Notes: a model not told the origin generated them from the letters alone. DNA of 32,000 nucleotides from Halosolutus amylolyticus (GCF_023566055.1 NZ_JALIQP010000001.1:610059-642058); one strand, 5' to 3'. Shown: positions 1-10,435, numbered from the stretch's first letter. A program made the numbers and translations.

Positions 1-1613
1 TGCGGATCAAACAATGCTTGCCAGTTGCGACACGGGGATAACTGTGTCTGCTCTACACGGTTGACGAACCCCCAGTCCGTACTACCGTGCTGTCTACTAT
101 TGACTGCCTCGCGGAGCGTTGCAGTTCCGGGCCACTCGTCAATACGGACAAACCGCGTCGTACCTACAGGCTCTGTACACTCTTTCGCCTCAAGGAATGC
201 GATGAGAGCGGTCGTTTGAGCTGTCTCGAAAACTCGTTCACCGGCTGGGTCAAACTGCACGAGCGCTTTGACGTCAAACTCATCCAGCAAGAACTGTTTG
301 AGGGACTCACCGTAATTCGTCGCAAGCCAACTCTGCGGAGTAATGATCGCAGCACGATCACCTGTATCGAGAAACTGTCGTGCGTGGTACCAGAAGTACG
401 CATACAACGGTGTTACGGCGCTTATTGTTCGTCCCGTTTCTTCCTCGGCTTGCGCGATTACCATCTCTTTGTAGGTTGTTGGAAGTTCGTGGTGACGGGT
501 GTATGGTGGGTTGCAAATAATTGCGTCAACGGCCTCATCAAGATCGTCTGGTGACAAAGAGAGAAAGTCGCTCGCTAATGGTTCATGTGCTTGACCGGCG
601 AGTCGCTGAGCGGTTATTCCCATGTGAAGTGCGAGTGGACTGCGATCAACTCCAAGAACGCGAGCCGGATCAGTACTGACGCTCCATCGCGGGTGACACG
701 GTGTCGACAACCCGCCAGCACCCATTCCTGGATCAAGGACAGTATTGTTGCCGGTGGCTGCCCACGTGCGCATTAGTTCCCCTAGTTCAGGTGGTGTTCG
801 GTGCTGTCCGAGTTCCCGCCGTTCCTCTTTCGGGATCAGCGATTCGTACAGTGCTCCGATGTCTTCGGCTGGTCGCGGCGAGTACAGCAACCGGTGCCGT
901 TCGTCTACGACTGCTTCTATCTTCTCCTCGCTAGCGAAACAGACGATCTCATCAAGGATCGACTCACAAAACACAGGATCCTCCGTTTGCTTCCCCGCCT
1001 GTCGTACACCCCTTGGAAGGTCATCCGGGAGCGTCGGTACTTCTCCGCACTGGTCGTTGTATTCGCACAGTACCGACCTCAACAAGCGTTCAAAGACGGC
1101 CTGGCGAGCAACGATCCGTAGAACCGTCTTCCTTCGTGACGAATCGATTCCGTGGGTCTCACACCAAGCATCAATATCGTCACGAAGTAACTGCGAGGTG
1201 CTCGCCAGAGAAGGAATGATGGTGTTCGCAGCTGCCTTGATCTTCTCGACGAGTTGCTCTCCAACGCGCGGAAAGAACACGAGAGAGTCCTCATCCCACG
1301 TGTAGTCAAGCCGGTCAGTTACTCGGTCGGTGAACTCATCTTTCTGTTCGGGAATCCACACTGGTATCCCAACGTCAGCACCGGTACGGTAGAGTTCCTG
1401 CTTCGAAAACGGTGCCGGAAGAGGTTGCTCGTTATTCGTGAGGCGATCGATGACGATGTCGATCTGCTCAACTCGAAGCGCTTCCAAACTAACCGGAGTA
1501 ACCGGAACTTCGTTCGTCCCTACTCTATGCTCGATGCGTGGTGAAGTAGCCGAGTCATAGACAGTACAGGCTTCAGACCGCTGCAGTGTTGTTCCTATTA
1601 CAGGTGATACCAT
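1..1613 (-). CDS. gamma-class N6-adenine DNA methyltransferase domain protein (possibly an MmeI/Eco57I-like fused R-M enzyme); 3' end lies beyond the left window edge
   Basis: The ORF track omits it because it runs off the edge. I checked minus-strand codons (plus-strand triplets starting at multiples of 3) and found no stop from base 3 to 1733. ATG at 1613-1611; upstream in-frame stop at 1736-1734. The translation contains GQHRTPPELGELM (771-809), VLDPGMGAGGL (708-740) and NPPY (501-512), the X-I-IV motif order of gamma-class amino-methylases. About 270 aa precede motif X. Confidence 0.8.
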   Translation of the reverse strand, partial: MVSPVIGTTLQRSEACTVYDSATSPRIEHRVGTNEVPVTPVSLEALRVEQIDIVIDRLTNNEQPLPAPFSKQELYRTGADVGIPVWIPEQKDEFTDRVTDRLDYTWDEDSLVFFPRVGEQLVEKIKAAANTIIPSLASTSQLLRDDIDAWCETHGIDSSRRKTVLRIVARQAVFERLLRSVLCEYNDQCGEVPTLPDDLPRGVRQAGKQTEDPVFCESILDEIVCFASEEKIEAVVDERHRLLYSPRPAEDIGALYESLIPKEERRELGQHRTPPELGELMRTWAATGNNTVLDPGMGAGGLSTPCHPRWSVSTDPARVLGVDRSPLALHMGITAQRLAGQAHEPLASDFLSLSPDDLDEAVDAIICNPPYTRHHELPTTYKEMVIAQAEEETGRTISAVTPLYAYFWYHARQFLDTGDRAAIITPQSWLATNYGESLKQFLLDEFDVKALVQFDPAGERVFETAQTTALIAFLEAKECTEPVGTTRFVRIDEWPGTATLREAVNSRQHGSTDWGFVNRVEQTQLSPCRNWQALFDP

Positions 1614-1702
1614 GGAAACCTCGCTACGGGAACGATCCGCAGTACGCCAGCCACTACGTGAGTAGTGGAGTTCCGAGGCGAGCCCTATAGCTACGTGTCG
1701 AC

Positions 1703-2002
1703 TCAATGCTCGAATTCGTCGATGACGATGCTGCTATGGATAGCGCGGTTCTCACACCAGTCCAACGCCGCTTCTTCATCGAAGAGACGAAGCTCTTCAC
1801 CAGCCACCCACTCACCCTCACATAGTTTCGCGTACTCTGTAGCAGCCCCGCCTTCGCAGTGGAGAAGGTACTCTCCGTCTGTAGTCTTGTACAGGGTTTC
1901 AATTAGGTAATGGTAGTCTCCTCTGTCGGTGCTATGCGCGTACTGGACGATCTGTTCTGCTCGATCCGTGTCGTACAATTTCCGGTCGATCACTCGTTGC
2001 AT
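1703..2002 (-). CDS. small acidic hypothetical protein (99 aa) upstream of the methylase
   Basis: ATG-initiated ORF with acidic composition. It is co-directional with the methylase and ends 89 nt before the methylase ATG. A TATA-like box lies about 30 nt upstream of its ATG. No family recognised. Confidence 0.55.
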   Translation of the reverse strand: MQRVIDRKLYDTDRAEQIVQYAHSTDRGDYHYLIETLYKTTDGEYLLHCEGGAATEYAKLCEGEWVAGEELRLFDEEAALDWCENRAIHSSIVIDEFEH

Positions 2003-2325: not shown

Positions 2326-4002
2326 TTAGTCGAGACTTTGGACGCCAGTTGAGTCGCCCTCACCGAAGTCAGCTGCTTCGGACCGCGATGGTTCGCGCTG
2401 GCGCTGATCATAGGCATCACGCCATTCGTCGATCACTGCGCGACTCTCAGCACCGTGTTCTGTGCGCCGACGTCGCACTTGGATGAGTGCTGGCGTGTTC
2501 ATCGCGTCGCCTGAGACAATTGCTTGCCCGGGCGTCAGTCCAGGTAATTCGCGGGTGACGTCCTCACCAGCAGCCTCGACAGATTTCTTAATCGCGTCCT
2601 GGTCGTTCGGATTCCGGATTTTCATTGAGATCTGTGTCCCGCACTGCGACAGCACGTCCGGGTCAATCTTTGACGGGCGTTGACTGATGATTCCGAGTCC
2701 GAACCCGAACTTACGCCCCTCGGACGCGATCGTCCGCATGATCCCAAGTGATGGGGCATCGCCTGACGCGGGAGCAAACCGATGCCCTTCTTCGAACAGT
2801 GCAAAGATAGGATGGTCAACCTCAGTGTCACGTCCTCGCACGTCATCGAGGCGCTCTCGGTAGAGTCGGCGGACGAGAACTGTCGTGATAAGCTGCTGAT
2901 CCCGTTTGTCCAGTGTGTCCATCTGGAGGACTGTACATTGGCCAGGGTCCACGATATCATCAAGCGGAACGTTTTCTTCAGGGTGGAACAGGTCGTTCCG
3001 TTGAATCGAGCGGCGAAGCCGCCATTCCAACGCCCCGACGCTGGAGTCATCTTCACCGTAGATTCGTTCCATTTCGTGGATGAGGTCATCTACTCCCCAA
3101 GTACGGCTCTCCTGGTTCTGCATCGAGCGCCACGCTGTCGAGAGCCGTTCTTGCATCCTGTTGCTCGGGTTATCCAGGATTGCCATGACGTCTCCGATCT
3201 CCAACTCGGAAATCCGAACGTGGAGCCGATCCGGATTGTAGTACACGACATCCGGCCTGTATCCGTCCTCACCCTCGAACGCCTCGTGACCCTGCATTTC
3301 GTCCAGCGTCCCGTATTCGCCGTGTGGGTCGAACACCAGTAGTGAGGCGCGGGAACTGGGCCGCATCATCTCTTCAATTAAGACGGACGCGGTGTAGGAT
3401 TTCCCGCTACCAGTCTCTGCGAGGATCGCTAAGTGCGTCGAGACGAACTCCTCAATAGGGACATGGATATTCGTCGCTTCCTCCGCTCGATTCAGTAACC
3501 AGCCAATGTGCGCGACGCCTCCCAACTCAGTCACGTCGACGCGGTCGGTTTCGCACCCGAGGTTCGGCAGCACCGTTTCGAGCTGAGGATCCGGTGCAAT
3601 AGACAAGGGCGTTCCCGGATCAGGAAGTTGCCGCGGGTTAGCGAACGTCGTCATATTCGCATCATAGTACCCGATAACCGTCGCTGTCAAACGGTACAAC
3701 TCCGTGTCGTCGTTCGGGACACCAAGTGTCGCCGCGACCGTGTCTGGCGCAACTCCCGGATCAGCGAGGAACCCCTCCGGGAGCCCTCTGATCAACTCAC
3801 GGTTCGTCACGCGAGCAAACACCGACCGGGTTTCGTCTTCGACCGAGACCGAGTACGTGATGAACTCACCTGTCTTGATCGTCCTGTCCGCTGGTGCAAC
3901 GAAGACGAACTCGTTCGGTCCGTCCCCAGGGCCGGCGACCGTCCCGATGACGTCCGAGCGGGCCGCCATTAGACCACCCCTCGCTGCTGGCGCGCCTGCC
4001 AT
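2326..4002 (-). CDS. herA: HerA-type FtsK/HerA-family hexameric ATPase/helicase
   Basis: Walker A in AILAETGSGKSYTASV. N-terminal HAS-barrel-like strand pattern (VIGTVAGPGDGPNEFVFVAP...GEFITYSV). FALFEEGHRFAP and GLGIISQRPSKIDPDVLSQCGTQISMKIRNPNDQ are typical of COG0433/DUF87 HerA. An alternative ATG at 3969 gives a TAATG junction with the upstream gene stop, so the true start may be 3969. Confidence 0.85.
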   Translation of the reverse strand: MAGAPAARGGLMAARSDVIGTVAGPGDGPNEFVFVAPADRTIKTGEFITYSVSVEDETRSVFARVTNRELIRGLPEGFLADPGVAPDTVAATLGVPNDDTELYRLTATVIGYYDANMTTFANPRQLPDPGTPLSIAPDPQLETVLPNLGCETDRVDVTELGGVAHIGWLLNRAEEATNIHVPIEEFVSTHLAILAETGSGKSYTASVLIEEMMRPSSRASLLVFDPHGEYGTLDEMQGHEAFEGEDGYRPDVVYYNPDRLHVRISELEIGDVMAILDNPSNRMQERLSTAWRSMQNQESRTWGVDDLIHEMERIYGEDDSSVGALEWRLRRSIQRNDLFHPEENVPLDDIVDPGQCTVLQMDTLDKRDQQLITTVLVRRLYRERLDDVRGRDTEVDHPIFALFEEGHRFAPASGDAPSLGIMRTIASEGRKFGFGLGIISQRPSKIDPDVLSQCGTQISMKIRNPNDQDAIKKSVEAAGEDVTRELPGLTPGQAIVSGDAMNTPALIQVRRRRTEHGAESRAVIDEWRDAYDQRQREPSRSEAADFGEGDSTGVQSLD

Positions 4003-4634
4003 TTTACGTTCTGCTCAACCACGTCTAATACACGCTGACTCGAATCGTCCTCCGGAAGCATCCTTCGCAACCGGTCGATGAGCGTCACGACCACTTCTGA
4101 CCCGAGATCGCCTGCAATATCTACGAGTCGATCCATATACGCCAACTGTATTTGCCCATCGACGCGGTGGAACGCTTCAACGAAGTGGTTCGGACAGTGG
4201 GACACCGTGTCGTCGACTTCCAGCGTCCATCGCGGCATTTGGTGACTTGGATCCGTGATCGCCCGATCGTCAGTGATGACCGCGGTTCCCAGCAACGCAA
4301 TTCCGACAAGCGTCGTTCGCTCCTCAATGTATCCTGGAGTGAACTGTGCCTGATCGTCTTGCGCTAATCGTGGCCCAGTTCGTCCCTGATCTGGATCCAC
4401 TAACTGCGTGTCGTAAATCACGCCGACAATCGCGTGTTCAGTCCCGTCAACAGTCTTCTTCATGAAGACCGGTTGCCCGAACTCGCGTTCGTGCAGTTCC
4501 GGCGGTCGGTCGCAGTCCCGTTCCTTGTACACCTCCGCGACGTAATCGAGGTGGCTGTTCGAGGACACGATGCTTCCGATCCGGACACACGAGTCTACGT
4601 CCGGTGAATCACTGGGTGTTGATGCGTTTGTCAT
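3969..4634 (-). CDS. hypothetical acidic protein (221 aa) between nurA-like and herA-like genes; N-terminus has a possible HAS-barrel/OB-like strand pattern
   Basis: ATG-initiated ORF in a coupled arrangement with herA. The N-terminal VRIGSIVSSNSHLDYVAEVY...FGQPVFMKK...HAIVGVIYDTQLV resembles the beta-barrel pattern at the HerA N-terminus. No family recognised. Confidence 0.6.
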   Translation of the reverse strand: MTNASTPSDSPDVDSCVRIGSIVSSNSHLDYVAEVYKERDCDRPPELHEREFGQPVFMKKTVDGTEHAIVGVIYDTQLVDPDQGRTGPRLAQDDQAQFTPGYIEERTTLVGIALLGTAVITDDRAITDPSHQMPRWTLEVDDTVSHCPNHFVEAFHRVDGQIQLAYMDRLVDIAGDLGSEVVVTLIDRLRRMLPEDDSSQRVLDVVEQNVKWQARQQRGVV

Positions 4635-4704
4635 AGATTTCGATTGGTGTTACTGCGTGTTGCTTGCTCAATGCGGGCTCCCGAGCCAATGCGATGAGCG
4701 ATCA

Positions 4705-5970
4705 TCATCGGCGGCGGAGTTCCTTACTGAGTGCTTTCGCGTTCCATTCGAGCGGCACGTCATTTGAGTCAGCCCACCGCTGGACAATCCGGTGGAACTG
4801 TTGACGATCTTGGTGATCGAGTACGGCGTCACTATCGGCCTGCTGGAGAATTTCAGGGTATCCCCGCCCGACACCGGCCTCTGCACGAACGATTTCAACA
4901 GTGTATTCGTACATCGAGTCATACCCAGCAGGCCCGTCGCTTCGACATAGCCAACCGGGGAACTCGATCCGGTCGAGACCGGCACCAGGCGGGACGTTCA
5001 GGTACGAAAATAGGATATCGTCCCGGAACTCGTACCGCTCGCCCTCATACGTCGTCTGTAACGCGTCAACACTCCCATCACGCTTCGATATAAACGGAAT
5101 CGTCGTATCGCCCCACGGACTCATCAACTCGGTCAAGACGTGCGCATCTGGGATGACGCGATCAGTCTCGAACTCATCCTGCAATAGGAGTCGCGTCATC
5201 TTCACGAGTTCAGTCGCGCTCGTGCCCGCAACGTATCCAACCAGCGGGATTTCGTGGTGTTGACTCGCCGCGATCACCCGGCTTAGCGTCGATATGTATC
5301 GATCGCGCGTCTCCGGCTTCAACGGATTCGCAAACGATGCGATCAGCGGCCCGTCATAGAACACGATCGGCGTGTGTTCTATGTCACCGGCATCACGAGC
5401 AGCTGCCAGGTTTACGAGTTGTTTGATGAGTAACGAGCCCTCGTATTCGAATCGGTGGTGGCCAACGAGTTGCGAATCGACGAACCGGTAATCTCCGTCC
5501 TCTGATTCCTGCGTGATCTCGTCGGGTGTCAACAGTCGCCCGTCGACACCTCGGTCGAGTCGCCCGTCGGCATGATGGTAATTGACCGCCCACGCCGCCT
5601 GCACGTACGCCAGAGGCACGTTGAACTCTGTAGTTGGTGGGAGTTGCGACCCGTCGACAGCCATAACCGGCACATCACGGAGAATCCCGCGCGCCCACTC
5701 GTTGATCTCCTCGTGGTTTTCCCACCCATCACTTTCGGAATGGGGGACAACGAGACTGCTAGCGGAATCGAACTCGTCGGTCGGGTACGCTCCAGGATAT
5801 GACGCCTGCTGTAACGCGTCACGTATCTTCTCGCTCGTCCACTCCTCAGGGAGCCGCTGGAACGCGTCTTGATACCGCTCGACGATCCCCGTACCATCGT
5901 CCAGATACGCTTCGATTGTCTCAACGCTGGACTCCAACTCGGCAGCAACCCCGTGTTTGTCGATCGGCAT
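4705..5970 (-). CDS. nurA: NurA-like 5'-3' nuclease
   Basis: Contains VMAVDGSQLPP (catalytic D-G-S strand), IVFYDGPLI and PLVGYVAGTSATELVKM, in the order expected for a NurA domain. Its start shares a TAATG junction with the rad50 stop (5968-5972). herA lies downstream. Confidence 0.65.
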   Translation of the reverse strand: MPIDKHGVAAELESSVETIEAYLDDGTGIVERYQDAFQRLPEEWTSEKIRDALQQASYPGAYPTDEFDSASSLVVPHSESDGWENHEEINEWARGILRDVPVMAVDGSQLPPTTEFNVPLAYVQAAWAVNYHHADGRLDRGVDGRLLTPDEITQESEDGDYRFVDSQLVGHHRFEYEGSLLIKQLVNLAAARDAGDIEHTPIVFYDGPLIASFANPLKPETRDRYISTLSRVIAASQHHEIPLVGYVAGTSATELVKMTRLLLQDEFETDRVIPDAHVLTELMSPWGDTTIPFISKRDGSVDALQTTYEGERYEFRDDILFSYLNVPPGAGLDRIEFPGWLCRSDGPAGYDSMYEYTVEIVRAEAGVGRGYPEILQQADSDAVLDHQDRQQFHRIVQRWADSNDVPLEWNAKALSKELRRR

Positions 5971-8681
5971 TAATTCACGGTCACCTCCGACGACTGCTGG
6001 TCCTTCTCCACGGTGACCGTGTAATCCGTCATCGAATCGAACGTCTGATCGTGGCTAATGACCGTAAGCTGTTCAAAACTGTCCAACTGCTTCAACTGCG
6101 TGACCAGATTCCGCTTCTTCTCCCGGTCCAGATTCGCCGTCGGCTCGTCGAGGAACGCCACCCCGACCGACGCCAACTGTTCAAGGATGGCAAGCCGTAC
6201 TGCAAGCGCAGCCGCCATCTTTTCACCGCCACTCAGCGTCGTGAACGACTTCCGCACGTCCGCATCGTGCACGACGATCTCGTAATCGCTCGTCCACTCC
6301 AGCGTCTCCGCGGATGCGCCACGGATCGTCCGGAACAACTCGTTCGCTCGTGTACCGATCCGATCCGTAATGATCTCACGCATCTTCGGCCCCGCTTCTC
6401 GCACGTTCTCCCGTACCCACGTAGCAAACTGCTGATCCGCTTTCAACTCCTTCAACTGCTGCAACTTCTCCTGGCGCTCCTCTAACTTCGCCTCTAACTC
6501 TTCGATTTCCTCTTGCGTCTCGGTCAGCGCTTCTTCTTTATGCTCTAATGACCGCCGATCACCAGCCAGTTCCTCTTTCAAGTCATCGATCTCTCCGTCA
6601 AGCGTCTCGAAGCGTTCTTCATCAAACGATGCTTGTGTCTCTTCCAGCTCAGCCTCCGTCTCTTCGAACTCGGCTTCGAGCTCCTCAAGGTCATCTTCCA
6701 ATTCCTCGACTCTCTCCCGACGTTCCTCAACTTGCGACGCCTGCTGCTCGTACTGTAGATACGTCTGATATGCCTCCTCCGTCTCTTCTAGCGTTTCCTC
6801 GACCTCAGCGATCTTCTCATCCAGCCCGTCGAACTCGTCTAACTCATCCTCAATCCAGTCAAGCACCGACTGTTCCTCTTCTAACTCAGAGCGCTTTTCT
6901 TCCAACTCCTCTGGTGCATCCGCGTGCTCGTCTACCCGGAACTCTGCCTTCTGGTACTCGTCATACGCCTCTTCCAAGTCATCACGTTCAGCTTCGAGGT
7001 CCGGGAGTTCCGCTAACTCGTCTTCTAACTCCGACAACTCCTCCTCAGTCCTCTCTTTCTCCTCACCGAGTTCGTCGAGATCGCCTTCTAACGACTCGAT
7101 CTTGTCCTGATGAAGAGAAATCTTCTCAACGCGCTGTTTGACCTCGTTCGCTGCCTCATGCCGCTCACGGAGCTTCTCAAGCTCTTCAGCAAGATCCGCA
7201 CGCTCCGCTTCAATCTCCTCAATTCGCTCTTCTCGCTGCTCAATCGTCTCCGACCGATGTTCTTCGTTTAATGGCTGATCACACGTCGGGCACGGCGCAT
7301 CAGCATCCGTATCACGCAACCGCTCTAACTGCTCTTCGAGTCGTTCCCGCTCGTTCTTCAGCTGTTTCCGACGAACCTCTTTGTCGTTAATCTCCTCCCC
7401 GATCTCGTCCGGATCCGTTGTCTCCGCCCACTCTTCTTCGATCTCGGCAATCGTCTCTTCTAACGACTCAATCTCCGCTTCCGTCTCCTCTATTTCTGCA
7501 GCGAGTTCCTCGATCTCCTGCTGGAATTCCTCGACGTCGTCTTCGCGGTCTTTCAGTGACTCAATCCGGTCATCCAGTTCCTCATACCGCTCCTTCTCAG
7601 TTTCAAGCGACTCTAACGTCTCTTGTGCTTCTTCCAGCGTCTCTGACTGCTCCTCAAGCTGCTCAACTCGGAACTCGATCGATTGAATCTCCTCTCTCTG
7701 TTCGTCGCGCTGGTCCTCAAGCGCGTCTCGCTCTTCCTCCTCCTCTTCTAACTCATCTAGTCGATCACTCGCATCCTGATACTGCTGATACCCGTCGCGG
7801 TTTGCCTCGCACTTGTCTTGGGCTTCCTCGGCAGCTTCAAGTTCCTCCTCAGCGCTTTCCAGTTGGTCCTCTGTCGCCTCGATTTCCTGATCCAAGGACT
7901 TAACCTCGTTTTCGAGGGACTCGATCTTCGCTTCGACAGCCTCTAACTCCTCATACTCTGCTTCTTTCTCCGATAACTCGGCCTCTTTCCGCTCGATACG
8001 CGCTTCGATCTCGTCAACTGCTTCAGCCAACGATTCTGCTTCCGCTCGTTCCTTCGGTAGGTTCTGCACTTCGCCAGTGAGCGTATCGATATCACTCCGA
8101 AGATCCTGCTGTTGCTTCTCAATCGCGTCCGGGATGTCTTTGAGTTGCTTCCACGATTCCTCGTACGCATCGAGATTCAGCAACGCGTCAAACGTCGATT
8201 TCCGATTCCGAGCCGTCTGCGAAAAGTCAGACAGGAACCGCGTCTGCGGGACCCCGATACACGACTCCCACAAGCTTCCTAACTCATCGCCATCCTCAAC
8301 GTCGAACCGAACGCATACCCAGTCCATCAACTGGCTTTTCGAATCGATGTCCTGGTCTATCCACTCATCACTTTCAGCGTCGTAGCGATGCACCCCGTAG
8401 TTCGACCGGCCAACCGACCTAGTAACTCGGAACCGCTCCGTCCCGTTTTCTGTGGGCGTGTCGAACGTGACCTCGACGGTCCCTGAGCTCGCGCCTTCTC
8501 GAACGAAATCCTTGTTGTTGAACGGCAGCGAATCGAATAACGCGAATCCGATCGCTTCCTGAATCGTTGATTTTCCTGCCCCGTTCTCACCGAGAATCGC
8601 CGTCACACCGCCCTCGATCGGTACCACTGTCCGGCCTTCGTACGACTTGATGTCTTCCAACGCGACTTCCGTGATTCTCAT
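5970..8681 (-). CDS. rad50: Rad50/SbcC-family SMC-like ATPase
   Basis: Walker A ILGENGAGKST. Very long E-rich coiled coil with a central zinc hook CPTC (7281-7292). Signature LSGGEKMAAALAVRLA and Walker B VAFLDEPTANLD. ATGA overlap with the mre11 stop (8678-8681). Confidence 0.9.
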   Translation of the reverse strand: MRITEVALEDIKSYEGRTVVPIEGGVTAILGENGAGKSTIQEAIGFALFDSLPFNNKDFVREGASSGTVEVTFDTPTENGTERFRVTRSVGRSNYGVHRYDAESDEWIDQDIDSKSQLMDWVCVRFDVEDGDELGSLWESCIGVPQTRFLSDFSQTARNRKSTFDALLNLDAYEESWKQLKDIPDAIEKQQQDLRSDIDTLTGEVQNLPKERAEAESLAEAVDEIEARIERKEAELSEKEAEYEELEAVEAKIESLENEVKSLDQEIEATEDQLESAEEELEAAEEAQDKCEANRDGYQQYQDASDRLDELEEEEEERDALEDQRDEQREEIQSIEFRVEQLEEQSETLEEAQETLESLETEKERYEELDDRIESLKDREDDVEEFQQEIEELAAEIEETEAEIESLEETIAEIEEEWAETTDPDEIGEEINDKEVRRKQLKNERERLEEQLERLRDTDADAPCPTCDQPLNEEHRSETIEQREERIEEIEAERADLAEELEKLRERHEAANEVKQRVEKISLHQDKIESLEGDLDELGEEKERTEEELSELEDELAELPDLEAERDDLEEAYDEYQKAEFRVDEHADAPEELEEKRSELEEEQSVLDWIEDELDEFDGLDEKIAEVEETLEETEEAYQTYLQYEQQASQVEERRERVEELEDDLEELEAEFEETEAELEETQASFDEERFETLDGEIDDLKEELAGDRRSLEHKEEALTETQEEIEELEAKLEERQEKLQQLKELKADQQFATWVRENVREAGPKMREIITDRIGTRANELFRTIRGASAETLEWTSDYEIVVHDADVRKSFTTLSGGEKMAAALAVRLAILEQLASVGVAFLDEPTANLDREKKRNLVTQLKQLDSFEQLTVISHDQTFDSMTDYTVTVEKDQQSSEVTVN

Positions 8682-10177
8682 TCGTTCACCACCTCCGCAG
8701 CCTCATCAGTCTCAGTACGTGACTCCTCACCCTCAGTTTCCGCAGCGTCACCATCCGCGAACGGATCCTCATCAATATCGAGGACGACGTCGTCAGCTAA
8801 CTCCGGGAACAGATCCCGCCGCGCTGAACTAACCGAGTCTTGGATGTCCTCAACCGCTTCTTCGGCTTGCGCCATCTGATGTGCGTCACCTAGCACGTCA
8901 GCTACATCCGACGCGTTCTCAGCGTACATTGACTCCTGCGCGATCGTCTCGAACACGCTATCCTCCAACGCTGCCGTGTTCAACTGACCGTCTTTGAACA
9001 CCTCTCCCTCATCAATCTCCGAGATGAGTTGCTGCACGTTCGCAGTCCGAATCCCAGTATTCACCTGAACGTACAGCGCTTCACACGTCTCTTCCGCGTA
9101 CGCCGCGAGTTCGTCTGTTCGGAAGTCCCCGCGGCTAAACTGCAGGGTTCCTGTGAACCGCAGATCAAGAATCGGATCTCGCGGCTCACCGCGCGCCGTA
9201 TACTTCGACTGCCCACAGTACTCCTTGACCGCCGACTGTTCGCCTTGCACGTGCTCCTGGAACGCCGACTCTAACTCGCCTGGCGACTCGTGCGGCGTCA
9301 CATCGAACTCGATACGGTAGTACGGCCGGCGCTTCGACTCGTGATGCGCCACCTCGTAGTTAACCGACTCATCGCTTCCGGACGCATCGGGACTCAGGTT
9401 CACCGAATAGTATCCGTGTTCCCAGTCATCCCGTCCTTCACGCGTATTGTGTGCTTCTGGTGAACCGGGGTTGTAGATCCAGTCACCGGCCTCGTACCGT
9501 TTGTGGATATGCCCGAGCGCAAGGTAATCCACGACCTCCTTTACCCCCCGCAGTTCGGTGTGCGTCACTGTCCCACCTAACGTCGGCACCTCGTCTTCCA
9601 TCCCGAAGTGCGCCAGCAATACCGTGAACGCCGGCTCACCGTACTCCTCGTTCGCTGCTTGGATCCCATTCGCCACTTGCTGAAGCGCCTTCCCCGTTTT
9701 CGCGCCACGCCACTGCAACCCGAACACACGAACCGGACCATCGAACTCCTCCCTATTGAGGTCATAGAACCCCGCGTACTCGCCCGGATCCTCGGGATCG
9801 TACGGTTCGAATCGAGCCGTATCCGGATCCGCATCCAGATCGGCTTTCAGGAAGACAACTTGACCGCGTTGGTGCAGGTAATTCAGCCACGTTACGTCAC
9901 GCGGCGTCAAATTCTCGTCGTGGTTCCCACGCGAAGCCAGGACTGGAACGTCGTCCGGTATCTGGTCGAGTTCTTGCTCGGTCTGATGGAGAACTTTTGG
10001 GCGGAGATCCCGAGAATGGAACAGGTCCCCTGGTAACACGATCGCCTCAGTCTCGCGCTTCTCAACCATTTCTTGGAAAGCGGTGCGTGTAGACGACACC
10101 ATGTCGTCCTCACGTTGGTTCAGTCCATACTGTCGATGGCCCAGGTGTGTGTCCGCGATGTGTCCAAATGTTAACAT
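8678..10177 (-). CDS. mre11: Mre11/SbcD-family calcineurin-like phosphoesterase nuclease
   Basis: Phosphoesterase motifs in order: GHIADTHLG, LPGDLFH, RGNHDE, LLAHFG, LGHIHK. Acidic C-terminal tail. Lies immediately upstream of rad50. Confidence 0.9.
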   Translation of the reverse strand: MLTFGHIADTHLGHRQYGLNQREDDMVSSTRTAFQEMVEKRETEAIVLPGDLFHSRDLRPKVLHQTEQELDQIPDDVPVLASRGNHDENLTPRDVTWLNYLHQRGQVVFLKADLDADPDTARFEPYDPEDPGEYAGFYDLNREEFDGPVRVFGLQWRGAKTGKALQQVANGIQAANEEYGEPAFTVLLAHFGMEDEVPTLGGTVTHTELRGVKEVVDYLALGHIHKRYEAGDWIYNPGSPEAHNTREGRDDWEHGYYSVNLSPDASGSDESVNYEVAHHESKRRPYYRIEFDVTPHESPGELESAFQEHVQGEQSAVKEYCGQSKYTARGEPRDPILDLRFTGTLQFSRGDFRTDELAAYAEETCEALYVQVNTGIRTANVQQLISEIDEGEVFKDGQLNTAALEDSVFETIAQESMYAENASDVADVLGDAHQMAQAEEAVEDIQDSVSSARRDLFPELADDVVLDIDEDPFADGDAAETEGEESRTETDEAAEVVNE

Positions 10178-10435
10178 TGTCGGTGAATCATAGATGGTCA
10201 GTGTTTCGCTGAGAGTGGTCCCAAATTACGCGACTGAACGTCTATGACTACATGAAACCGGATAGCTATTAAACGTCAGTTAACCAAAGTGGAAGTGAAA
10301 ATATAGACTCGTGACAATAGCCACCGCCGAGTTACCGGTGTCCCCTGTTCAAGTGTGATTCAGAGTACCAGCTACTCGGGTGGCACTCATGGAAACGCTC
10401 AAGCAACCAGAGATTGTTGGCCAATCCAGAATCAG

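Follow-up and report, generated by a model that had tools for sequence, protein, structure and literature searches.

A five-gene cassette and its fifth member

The window analyzed here is a stretch of 32,000 nucleotides from the haloarchaeon Halosolutus amylolyticus (NZ_JALIQP010000001.1:610059-642058). Its minus strand carries, between positions 2326 and 10177, five open reading frames (ORFs) in the same direction, which ORF positions and domain searches assign to the order mre11-rad50-nurA-X-herA. This cassette is an island-borne, accessory copy of an ancient five-gene resection operon of the Archaeoglobus type. The leading gene (8678-10177) encodes a 499-residue Mre11 paralogue, the nuclease subunit, with a Metallophos domain, and is followed by a gene for a 903-residue Rad50 paralogue (5970-8681), an ABC ATPase with a coiled coil and zinc hook. 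Then come nurA (4705-5970; 421 residues, PF09376), which belongs to a family of 5'-3' exo/endonucleases, and X (3969-4634; 221 residues, DUF8166/PF26500), the product of which is predicted to be a stand-alone HAS-barrel with a C-terminal helical hairpin. Finally, herA (2326-3969) encodes a member of the hexameric DNA translocase family.

The genes are tightly coupled. The mre11/rad50 junction is an ATGA (8681-8678), and a TAATG forms both the rad50/nurA junction (5972-5968), where the nurA start overlaps the rad50 stop, and the X/herA junction (3971-3967). The latter provides an alternative herA start at 3969, which yields a protein of 547 residues as against 558 residues from a start at 4002, and it is the start that RefSeq has chosen for the orthologue on a Natrinema zhouii plasmid. 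The sole gap in the cassette is a 70-nucleotide spacer between nurA and X (4635-4704). The length of this spacer differs among other haloarchaeal clades; it is missing from Geoglobus acetivorans (locus L135), where the three downstream genes overlap by 4 nucleotides, and in locus L133 nurA and X lie 2 nucleotides apart and X and herA overlap by 4. The initial annotation of the window had proposed a cassette with these genes, junctions and single gap, and the ORFs and a reading of the sequence bear this out.

To evaluate the four enzymes, we scored motif conservation over 36 to 39 orthologues per protein and took residues kept in at least 95% of these as conserved. An alignment of the cassette Mre11 with Pyrococcus furiosus Mre11 (1ii7) reveals that every phosphoesterase motif is kept (DxH, GDLFH, GNHD, the motif IV His and GHIH), with D9, H11, D51, N85, H86, H190, H223 and H225 present in at least 95% of 37 orthologues. 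The best NCBIfam matches of this protein are Mre11 models, each below its equivalog cut-off (Mre11_Halo, 49.4 versus 550 bits; Mre11_Pyroc, 62.9 versus 600 bits; Mre11_Sulfo, 57.5 versus 500 bits). Rad50 likewise matches Rad50 models from end to end and below their cut-offs (PRK03918, 253.4 versus 700 bits; Rad50_Halo, 162.7 versus 1000 bits). It has the Walker A and B, Q-loop, signature and H-loop elements of an ABC ATPase head, split by a coiled coil with a CxxC hook, and the conserved positions are Walker A G31-T39, Q146, hook C464-P-T-C467, signature S817-GGE, Walker B D845-E846 and H877. NurA is recognized by PF09376 (77.7 bits versus a cut-off of 21, residues 102-383) and keeps D106-G-S, Y205-D206-G and further Asp, Glu and His residues in at least 95% of 38 orthologues; a sequence search of the PDB with NurA returned no match. 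HerA scores 131.5 bits with PF01935 (cut-off 23.2), conserves Walker A G198-SGKS and Walker B E404-E405 across its orthologues, and misses the cut-off of NF040819 (172.5 versus 970 bits); its best relatives in the PDB are the HerA proteins of Thermococcus kodakarensis and S. solfataricus. Judged by these motifs, all four cassette enzymes look active.

None of the profiles in the local Pfam, NCBIfam and PADLOC libraries matches protein X. Precomputed annotation places PF26500 (DUF8166) on all 120 of the X homologues listed, one of which is 99% identical, and the local copy of Pfam gave X no family; we found no mention of X or DUF8166 in the literature searched. The AF2 model of X (pLDDT 82.6) consists of an N-terminal beta-barrel followed by a helical hairpin, and a Foldseek comparison with the PDB returns HerA chains as all of the top 34 matches (E-values from 6e-6 to 2e-2). 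These are drawn from archaeal repair HerA as well as from bacterial SIR2-HerA and DUF4297-HerA, and the next matches are the crown barrels of F1-ATPase. The modeled fold of X is that of the N-terminal HAS-barrel of HerA, the face on which NurA or defence effectors dock. We considered, and rejected, the idea that X is a piece split off from HerA. The AF2 model of the cassette HerA retains an all-beta N-terminal domain of its own (residues 7-124), with the Sso HerA profile alignment beginning at position 99, and neither BLASTP nor hhalign detects any resemblance between the sequences of X and HerA; X is therefore a further barrel and not one half of a split gene. In the loci examined, nurA and herA invariably have the X gene between them, coupled to the start of herA, and X is likely a HAS-barrel subunit or adaptor of the HerA-NurA machine. 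A nearly invariant motif, V79-DPDQGRxGPRL-90, falls partly within a low-confidence segment of the model (residues 85-95); it is a candidate for the site at which X contacts a partner or DNA.

An accessory copy of an ancient operon

The initial annotation left two options for this cassette, namely the cell's housekeeping resection operon with an island grown around it or an accessory paralogous set acting on foreign DNA ends. A search for second copies finds a housekeeping Mre11_Halo/Rad50_Halo pair on another contig (C3:308403-312382), both members of which pass the curated cut-offs, and a core NurA-domain gene elsewhere in the genome (C5:135885-137186; L002). The cassette Rad50 is 29% identical to the housekeeping Rad50 of the same genome. 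Of 41 relatives, 39 have Rad50_Halo and 38 have the core NurA, and the identities of the latter follow taxonomy (96% and 89% to the two congeners, 72-89% to most of the family's other genera and 51-64% to most other families). The cassette is found in 7 of the 41 and is absent from both genomes of the same genus.

Some further observations concern the core set. A frame for a HerA-like ATPase lies ≈3 kb from the core nurA (C5 around 132590; L016). HerA and NurA are stated to be absent from Haloferax volcanii (PMC7776575), yet the H. volcanii genome used as a control likewise contains a match to the Pfam NurA model. Two other haloarchaeal families (L160, G030:C16:83119-90671, and L161, G035:C1) have a housekeeping-type mre11-rad50 pair directly followed by a core-type nurA, and in G030 a weak HerA-like gene comes next after nurA, without X. 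Such an arrangement may represent the haloarchaeal core set before it was split.

The cassette resides in a region of atypical composition. The GC content of the genome is 65%, and that of C1:598000-674000, which contains the whole window, is 44-60%. The flanks of this island (to C1:597010 on the left and from C1:675000 on the right) are 78 kb apart in H. amylolyticus; the same flanks are ≈1.4 kb apart in one congener (G001) and ≈1.4-2.3 kb apart in the other (G002), and the site is empty in both, which indicates that the cassette came with, or into, an inserted island. An integrase gene lies within the island; no tRNA is found at either border, and direct repeats were not searched for. The completeness of the operon and its intact motifs would suit a vertically inherited housekeeping set around which an island grew later, but that reading is refuted by the separate pair that passes the curated cut-offs and by the empty sites in both congeners, and it also conflicts with a cassette GC that is the island's and not the genome's. 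We give it practically no credence.

Protein identities and phylogeny point the same way. The cassette proteins are 91-95% identical to those of Natronobacterium gregoryi (G019), a member of another genus with a core NurA of 82% identity, and 37-54% identical to those of two genomes from the family of H. amylolyticus, for which core NurA identity is 72-74%. A HerA tree unites the haloarchaeal cassettes in a single clade (support 100) in which the haloarchaeal families are intermixed; this incongruence with taxonomy also counts against vertical inheritance. In a Rad50 tree, the cassette Rad50 groups with all Rad50s of five-gene operons (support 100), apart from the clade of housekeeping haloarchaeal orthologues (support 100). 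Both trees are quick searches with SH-aLRT support only.

X homologues are found in ≈41 of 401 haloarchaeal species (≈10%) and in 29 of 91 genera. The five-gene order is kept in 43 named loci at identities down to 36-50% and recurs in more than 50 independent loci overall, far beyond chance. The sampled genomes are related and cassettes spread as blocks, so that there will have been fewer independent events than such counts suggest. When all flanking ORFs are clustered, only the five cassette genes prove to be common to these loci. Four copies are borne on plasmids, and in G011 the cassette spans an 86-kb contig end to end; four copies are decayed, being frameshifted or partly deleted. A viral origin was considered and rejected, since no cassette was found in phage records or IMG/VR viral contigs. 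That the cassette is accessory and horizontally acquired we hold with very little doubt. The accessory half of the second option in the initial annotation is therefore upheld by the patchy, incongruent, plasmid-borne and decayed copies; the other half, a possible action on foreign ends, has recurrent linkage to nuclease and other defence genes in its favor.

Two side observations bear on the surroundings and sampling of these copies. On plasmid unnamed4 of Natrinema zhouii (L162, 2180-8230 and 21815-28663), the cassette is flanked on one side by genes for a TerB-N protein, an ATPase and a DEAD-box helicase, and on the other by a second "DNA repair exonuclease" and AAA ATPase (SbcCD-like) pair and another helicase. 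Typical haloarchaeal cassettes also occur in metagenome-assembled genomes labeled Halanaerobiaceae, Syntrophomonadaceae, Hadarchaeia, Gammaproteobacteria and Thermoplasmata (L073, L098, L108, L112 and L113); these are probably mis-binned haloarchaeal contigs from hypersaline samples.

We also examined relatives beyond the Halobacteria. The closest HerA relatives there are 38-44% identical over their full length and belong to families of the same phylum in which they are near-universal. One example is the Archaeoglobaceae (family f21; 54 of 64 genomes, with Geoglobus acetivorans and Archaeoglobus veneficus as members), and a record from the Methanonatronarchaeales matches one more of these families. 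The X profile recognizes an ORF of 150-190 residues directly upstream of herA in 17 of 20 such loci; this protein is shorter than the haloarchaeal X, and it is mostly the N-terminal strand and the C-terminal helices that match. Of 13 longer operon-bearing regions, 12 contain the complete order mre11-rad50-nurA-X-herA; they come from eight non-halobacterial families, which comprise the Archaeoglobaceae, the Methanonatronarchaeales and six further families, and in the HerA tree their five-gene operons are the nearest clades to the cassette. The likeness between the Archaeoglobaceae-type operon and the cassette thus lies in an identical gene order and in a small X homologue between nurA and herA, at a HerA identity that is low. 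The shared order and shared X make X an ancestral fifth member of the operon and not a defence add-on, which removes the argument for the second option that the initial annotation drew from the extra 221-residue gene. Near-universal as it is in these families, the operon is presumably housekeeping there. We found no description of this five-gene operon of the Archaeoglobaceae and other families in the literature searched.

Linkage to nucleases and the possible role of the cassette

Just left of the window lies a gene for a 760-residue PLD-family nuclease with PLDc_2/RE_NgoFVII domains (PLD760; C1:606898-609177, L020:14839-17121), convergent with a methylase gene. Its PLD domain is recognizable in the first ≈170 residues only, which leaves ≈590 residues without an assigned domain; a sequence search of the PDB returned nothing for PLD760, and NCBIfam and PADLOC gave nothing useful. 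The PLD family is found in 90 of the 401 genomes, specifically in 26 of the 41 that carry X versus 64 of the 360 others, and 17 of the 41 have a member no more than 10.5 kb away from X. In the crown clade of cassettes, the PLD gene lies downstream of herA in varying orientation and is sometimes accompanied by the methylase. In three deeper clades, a PLD member with 29-32% identity to PLD760 is found directly upstream of, and co-directional with, mre11. A closer orthologue (84-88% identity) occupies the position directly upstream of mre11 in G017 (L044:598-2863), where it is split into two frames at codon 295/296 by a frameshift or a sequencing error. The presence of this linkage across deep clades indicates an association that is recurrent and old. 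In two genomes (L165:3274-4026 and L168:14607-15371), a gene for an HFX_2341_N/DUF6293_C protein, a Csa3-like regulator with Rossmann and winged-helix parts, is divergent from the PLD-mre11 operon, and it is possible that this protein is a dedicated regulator of that operon.

The methylase gene occupies the left end of the window (1-1706, minus strand), which holds the N-terminal 568 residues of an 855-residue N6-adenine DNA methylase with Eco57I, N6_Mtase and TaqI_C domains; the remainder extends past the end. We rejected the methylase as a member of the cassette operon, given its convergent pairing with the PLD nuclease and the detection of a homologue in only 6 of 43 loci. In Natronobacterium gregoryi (L037:1905-2075), the methylase is cut to a 57-residue C-terminal remnant and the PLD760 orthologue beside the cassette is full length, which raises the possibility that the PLD protein is not a restriction enzyme of the classical kind held in check by methylation. 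Relatives of the PLD family (≈30% identity) adjoin genes for prokaryotic Argonaute (pAgo) in ≈20 haloarchaeal genomes, and the family looks like a pAgo-associated nuclease family that is paired here with a methylase instead.

The cassette itself is also linked to pAgo. In two genomes, a gene for an 838-residue long pAgo precedes the PLD gene to give pAgo-PLD-mre11-rad50-nurA-X-herA. In another genome (G014; L038:567-10173, minus strand), a six-gene pAgo operon is divergent from mre11 and encodes a wHTH/Csa3-like regulator, a 239-residue protein, a DUF2797 protein, a long pAgo (PADLOC pAgo, 1145 bits), an RNase H-like/HhH protein and a DEAD/MZB helicase. Crown-clade loci L072, L074, L076 and L080 have pAgo-like matches at the corresponding place upstream of mre11, truncated where the locus ends, and several small ORFs in this upstream region cluster across four to six loci. 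X and a Pfam-detectable Piwi domain occur together in 5 of the 401 genomes, and in all five the two are within 27 kb of each other (within 10 kb in four); the pAgo of Natronobacterium gregoryi is 27 kb from the cassette.

The remaining neighbors are largely those that the initial annotation had named. To the left is the methylase already described, upstream of which lies a 99-residue ORF (1703-2002, minus strand) without a family match in Pfam, NCBIfam or PADLOC; homologues of this ORF (60-68% identity) adjoin the cassette in L036, L072, L076 and L109, and it recurs beside cassette and methylase. Upstream of mre11 is an A/T-rich, presumed promoter region (10178-10354) shared with a divergent gene for a Panacea protein; a scan for bacterial-type promoters and terminators was uninformative. 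To the right of the cassette, the Panacea gene is accompanied by genes for an EVE/AAA_5 McrB-like protein, an HNH protein, GmrSD and a PglZ (BREX) protein. Across 38 cassettes, the two nearest neighbors on each side include strong matches to SngC, PsyrT, BrxH, Old/GajA/AriA-like ATPases, DpdF, TmtA and CARF proteins.

The recurrent and partly co-directional linkage to PLD and pAgo genes, together with the island context, favors a role in which the haloarchaeal cassette supports nucleolytic defence by a RecBCD-like processing of ends made by defence nucleases; we give that role about even credence. What is known of the biochemistry of the four enzyme families allows a mechanism to be sketched. 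Mre11-Rad50 would recognize and open DNA ends, the HerA hexamer would translocate duplex DNA, and the NurA dimer would digest the strands, with X forming an extra HAS-barrel ring or an adaptor with HerA and NurA. The cassette would in this way degrade or process ends cut in foreign DNA by neighboring nucleases, here presumably the PLD nuclease with its methylase and elsewhere pAgo with PLD, and it could still repair breaks in the host's own DNA. A bolder proposal, which we put forward tentatively and think somewhat doubtful, is that the five-gene machine, a co-evolving PLD nuclease and, in several lineages, a long pAgo constitute an undescribed multigene defence system and an archaeal analogue of RecBCD. 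Here the nuclease would cut first, Mre11-Rad50 and NurA-X-HerA would destroy the invader DNA and perhaps supply pAgo guides, and X would be a new regulatory HAS-barrel subunit.

Several observations weigh against a defence role. The neighborhood by itself is weak evidence, since islands gather accessory genes of any function, and the genome-level co-occurrence of X and Piwi (5 observed, 4.4 expected) is not above chance; no pAgo is found in the genome of H. amylolyticus itself. The PLD link is not obligatory, as PLD760 orthologues occur without a cassette in ≈23 genomes and most cassettes of the deepest clades are without a PLD gene. The cassette HerA scores higher with archaeal repair HerA models (172 bits) than with anti-phage HerA models (104-108 bits), and in the Archaeoglobaceae and other non-halobacterial relatives the operon is presumably ordinary repair machinery. 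Furthermore, the complete genome of Halococcoides cellulosivorans (G025) has no Rad50_Halo, Mre11_Halo or core NurA, and a five-gene cassette (C1:1533677-1541676; GC 65-72%, like its surroundings) is its only Mre11-Rad50 set.

The last two of these points also favor an alternative in which the cassette is an accessory DNA-repair or recombination module without a defence role, one that helps cells to survive double-strand breaks caused by UV, desiccation or oxidative stress and lies in islands because that is where acquired DNA lands. The native-looking GC of the cassettes in Halococcoides and Halococcus, the retention of all catalytic motifs and the lack of a sensor or toxic effector domain in the cassette (Pfam and PADLOC scans) are likewise in keeping with repair. 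However, the PLD linkage is close and often co-directional across deep clades, pAgo operons are recurrent neighbors, and a conserved Mre11-Rad50 pair and a core NurA are already part of the haloarchaeal equipment; moreover, occurrence in only ≈10% of species and the decay of some copies fit a dispensable function under fluctuating selection. We regard a pure repair module as possible, with more doubt than confidence.

The mobility of the cassette raises another alternative, that it serves a mobile element or its neighboring nucleases, either by repairing chromosome breaks inflicted by co-transferred restriction, PLD or pAgo nucleases, which would help these to become established in a new host, or by recombination-dependent maintenance of the island or plasmid, much as the Rad50/Mre11-like gp46/gp47 of phage T4 support recombination-dependent maintenance. 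The copies on plasmids and on the integrase-containing 78-kb insertion, the travel of the cassette with PLD/methylase and pAgo modules and the intact PLD gene beside the methylase remnant in Natronobacterium gregoryi are in line with such a service. Its absence from phage records and IMG/VR viral contigs argues against it, as do flanks so variable that the five genes are not tied to one element and the many copies with neither a PLD gene nor pAgo nearby. We consider this alternative unlikely.

Comparison with known systems

A close characterized counterpart of the cassette is the operon of thermophilic archaea, which in Sulfolobus and Pyrococcus has the gene order herA-mre11-rad50-nurA. Its four enzymes and their catalytic motifs are those of the cassette, and its genes are likewise tightly coupled; structures from this system include 4d2i and 9x1l-9x1p, and the best solved relatives of the cassette HerA and Mre11 are found here. 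The cassette differs in the presence of X, in its order mre11-rad50-nurA-X-herA, in being accessory, island-borne and mobile, and in scoring below the equivalog cut-offs. This Mre11-Rad50-HerA-NurA operon is known from Sulfolobus and Pyrococcus/Thermococcus (Constantinesco et al. 2002, 2004, as cited in PMC7776575). The literature treats archaeal Mre11-Rad50-HerA-NurA resection as a four-protein system of thermophiles, and what is new here is a conserved fifth gene: a stand-alone HerA-like barrel in the operons of Archaeoglobi, Methanonatronarchaeia and others predicts an unrecognized subunit of HerA-NurA.

Within the Halobacteria, the housekeeping Mre11-Rad50 pair (NF041030, NF041035), which has been studied in Haloferax volcanii (PMC7776575), is of the same families as the cassette pair and is encoded in the same genome. 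It is unlike the cassette pair in its Rad50 sequence and separate clade and in its lack of linkage to nurA or herA here. Haloarchaea thus hold two deeply separated Mre11-Rad50 lineages, one of which behaves as a mobile accessory module.

The bacterial anti-phage HerA systems (SIR2-HerA/Nezha and DUF4297-HerA; 8sub, 8j4u, 8ziq) and NurA-HerA share with the cassette a HerA hexamer, a partner on the HAS-barrel face and a location in defence islands; in the cassette, the partner nuclease is NurA, Mre11-Rad50 is present as well, and a SIR2 or DUF4297 effector is absent. None of the PADLOC system models fits the cassette. PADLOC does give partial matches of the Rad50 head to LmuB (112 bits) and mad3, of HerA to mad8 and of the methylase to mad2, which pointed to a methylation-associated system making use of the adjacent methylase. 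Membership in MADS, an eight-gene operon (mad1-mad8) with kinases and OLD-type MAD3-MAD4 (PMC13662399), was rejected since the mad2, mad3 and mad8 matches are partial and of a generic P-loop or methylase kind and the gene composition differs. Lamassu was likewise rejected, the LmuB match being partial and confined to Rad50, with no match to LmuA or LmuC in the cassette.

Finally, a proposed functional parallel is bacterial RecBCD/AddAB, the partner of restriction, CRISPR adaptation and pAgo interference; for the last of these, the 2020 CbAgo work of Kuzmenko and colleagues is reportedly an example. Archaea are, to our knowledge, without RecBCD, and we know of no Chi-like control for the cassette, the proteins of which are unrelated to those of RecBCD/AddAB. 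The analogy would lie in an ATP-driven, end-processing helicase-nuclease that degrades DNA cut by other nucleases and may supply precursors of guides or spacers, and it fits the pAgo and PLD linkage of the cassette. Seen in this light, the cassette is a concrete candidate for the machinery by which archaeal nucleolytic defences could dispose of the DNA that they have cut or by which pAgo could be provided with guides.

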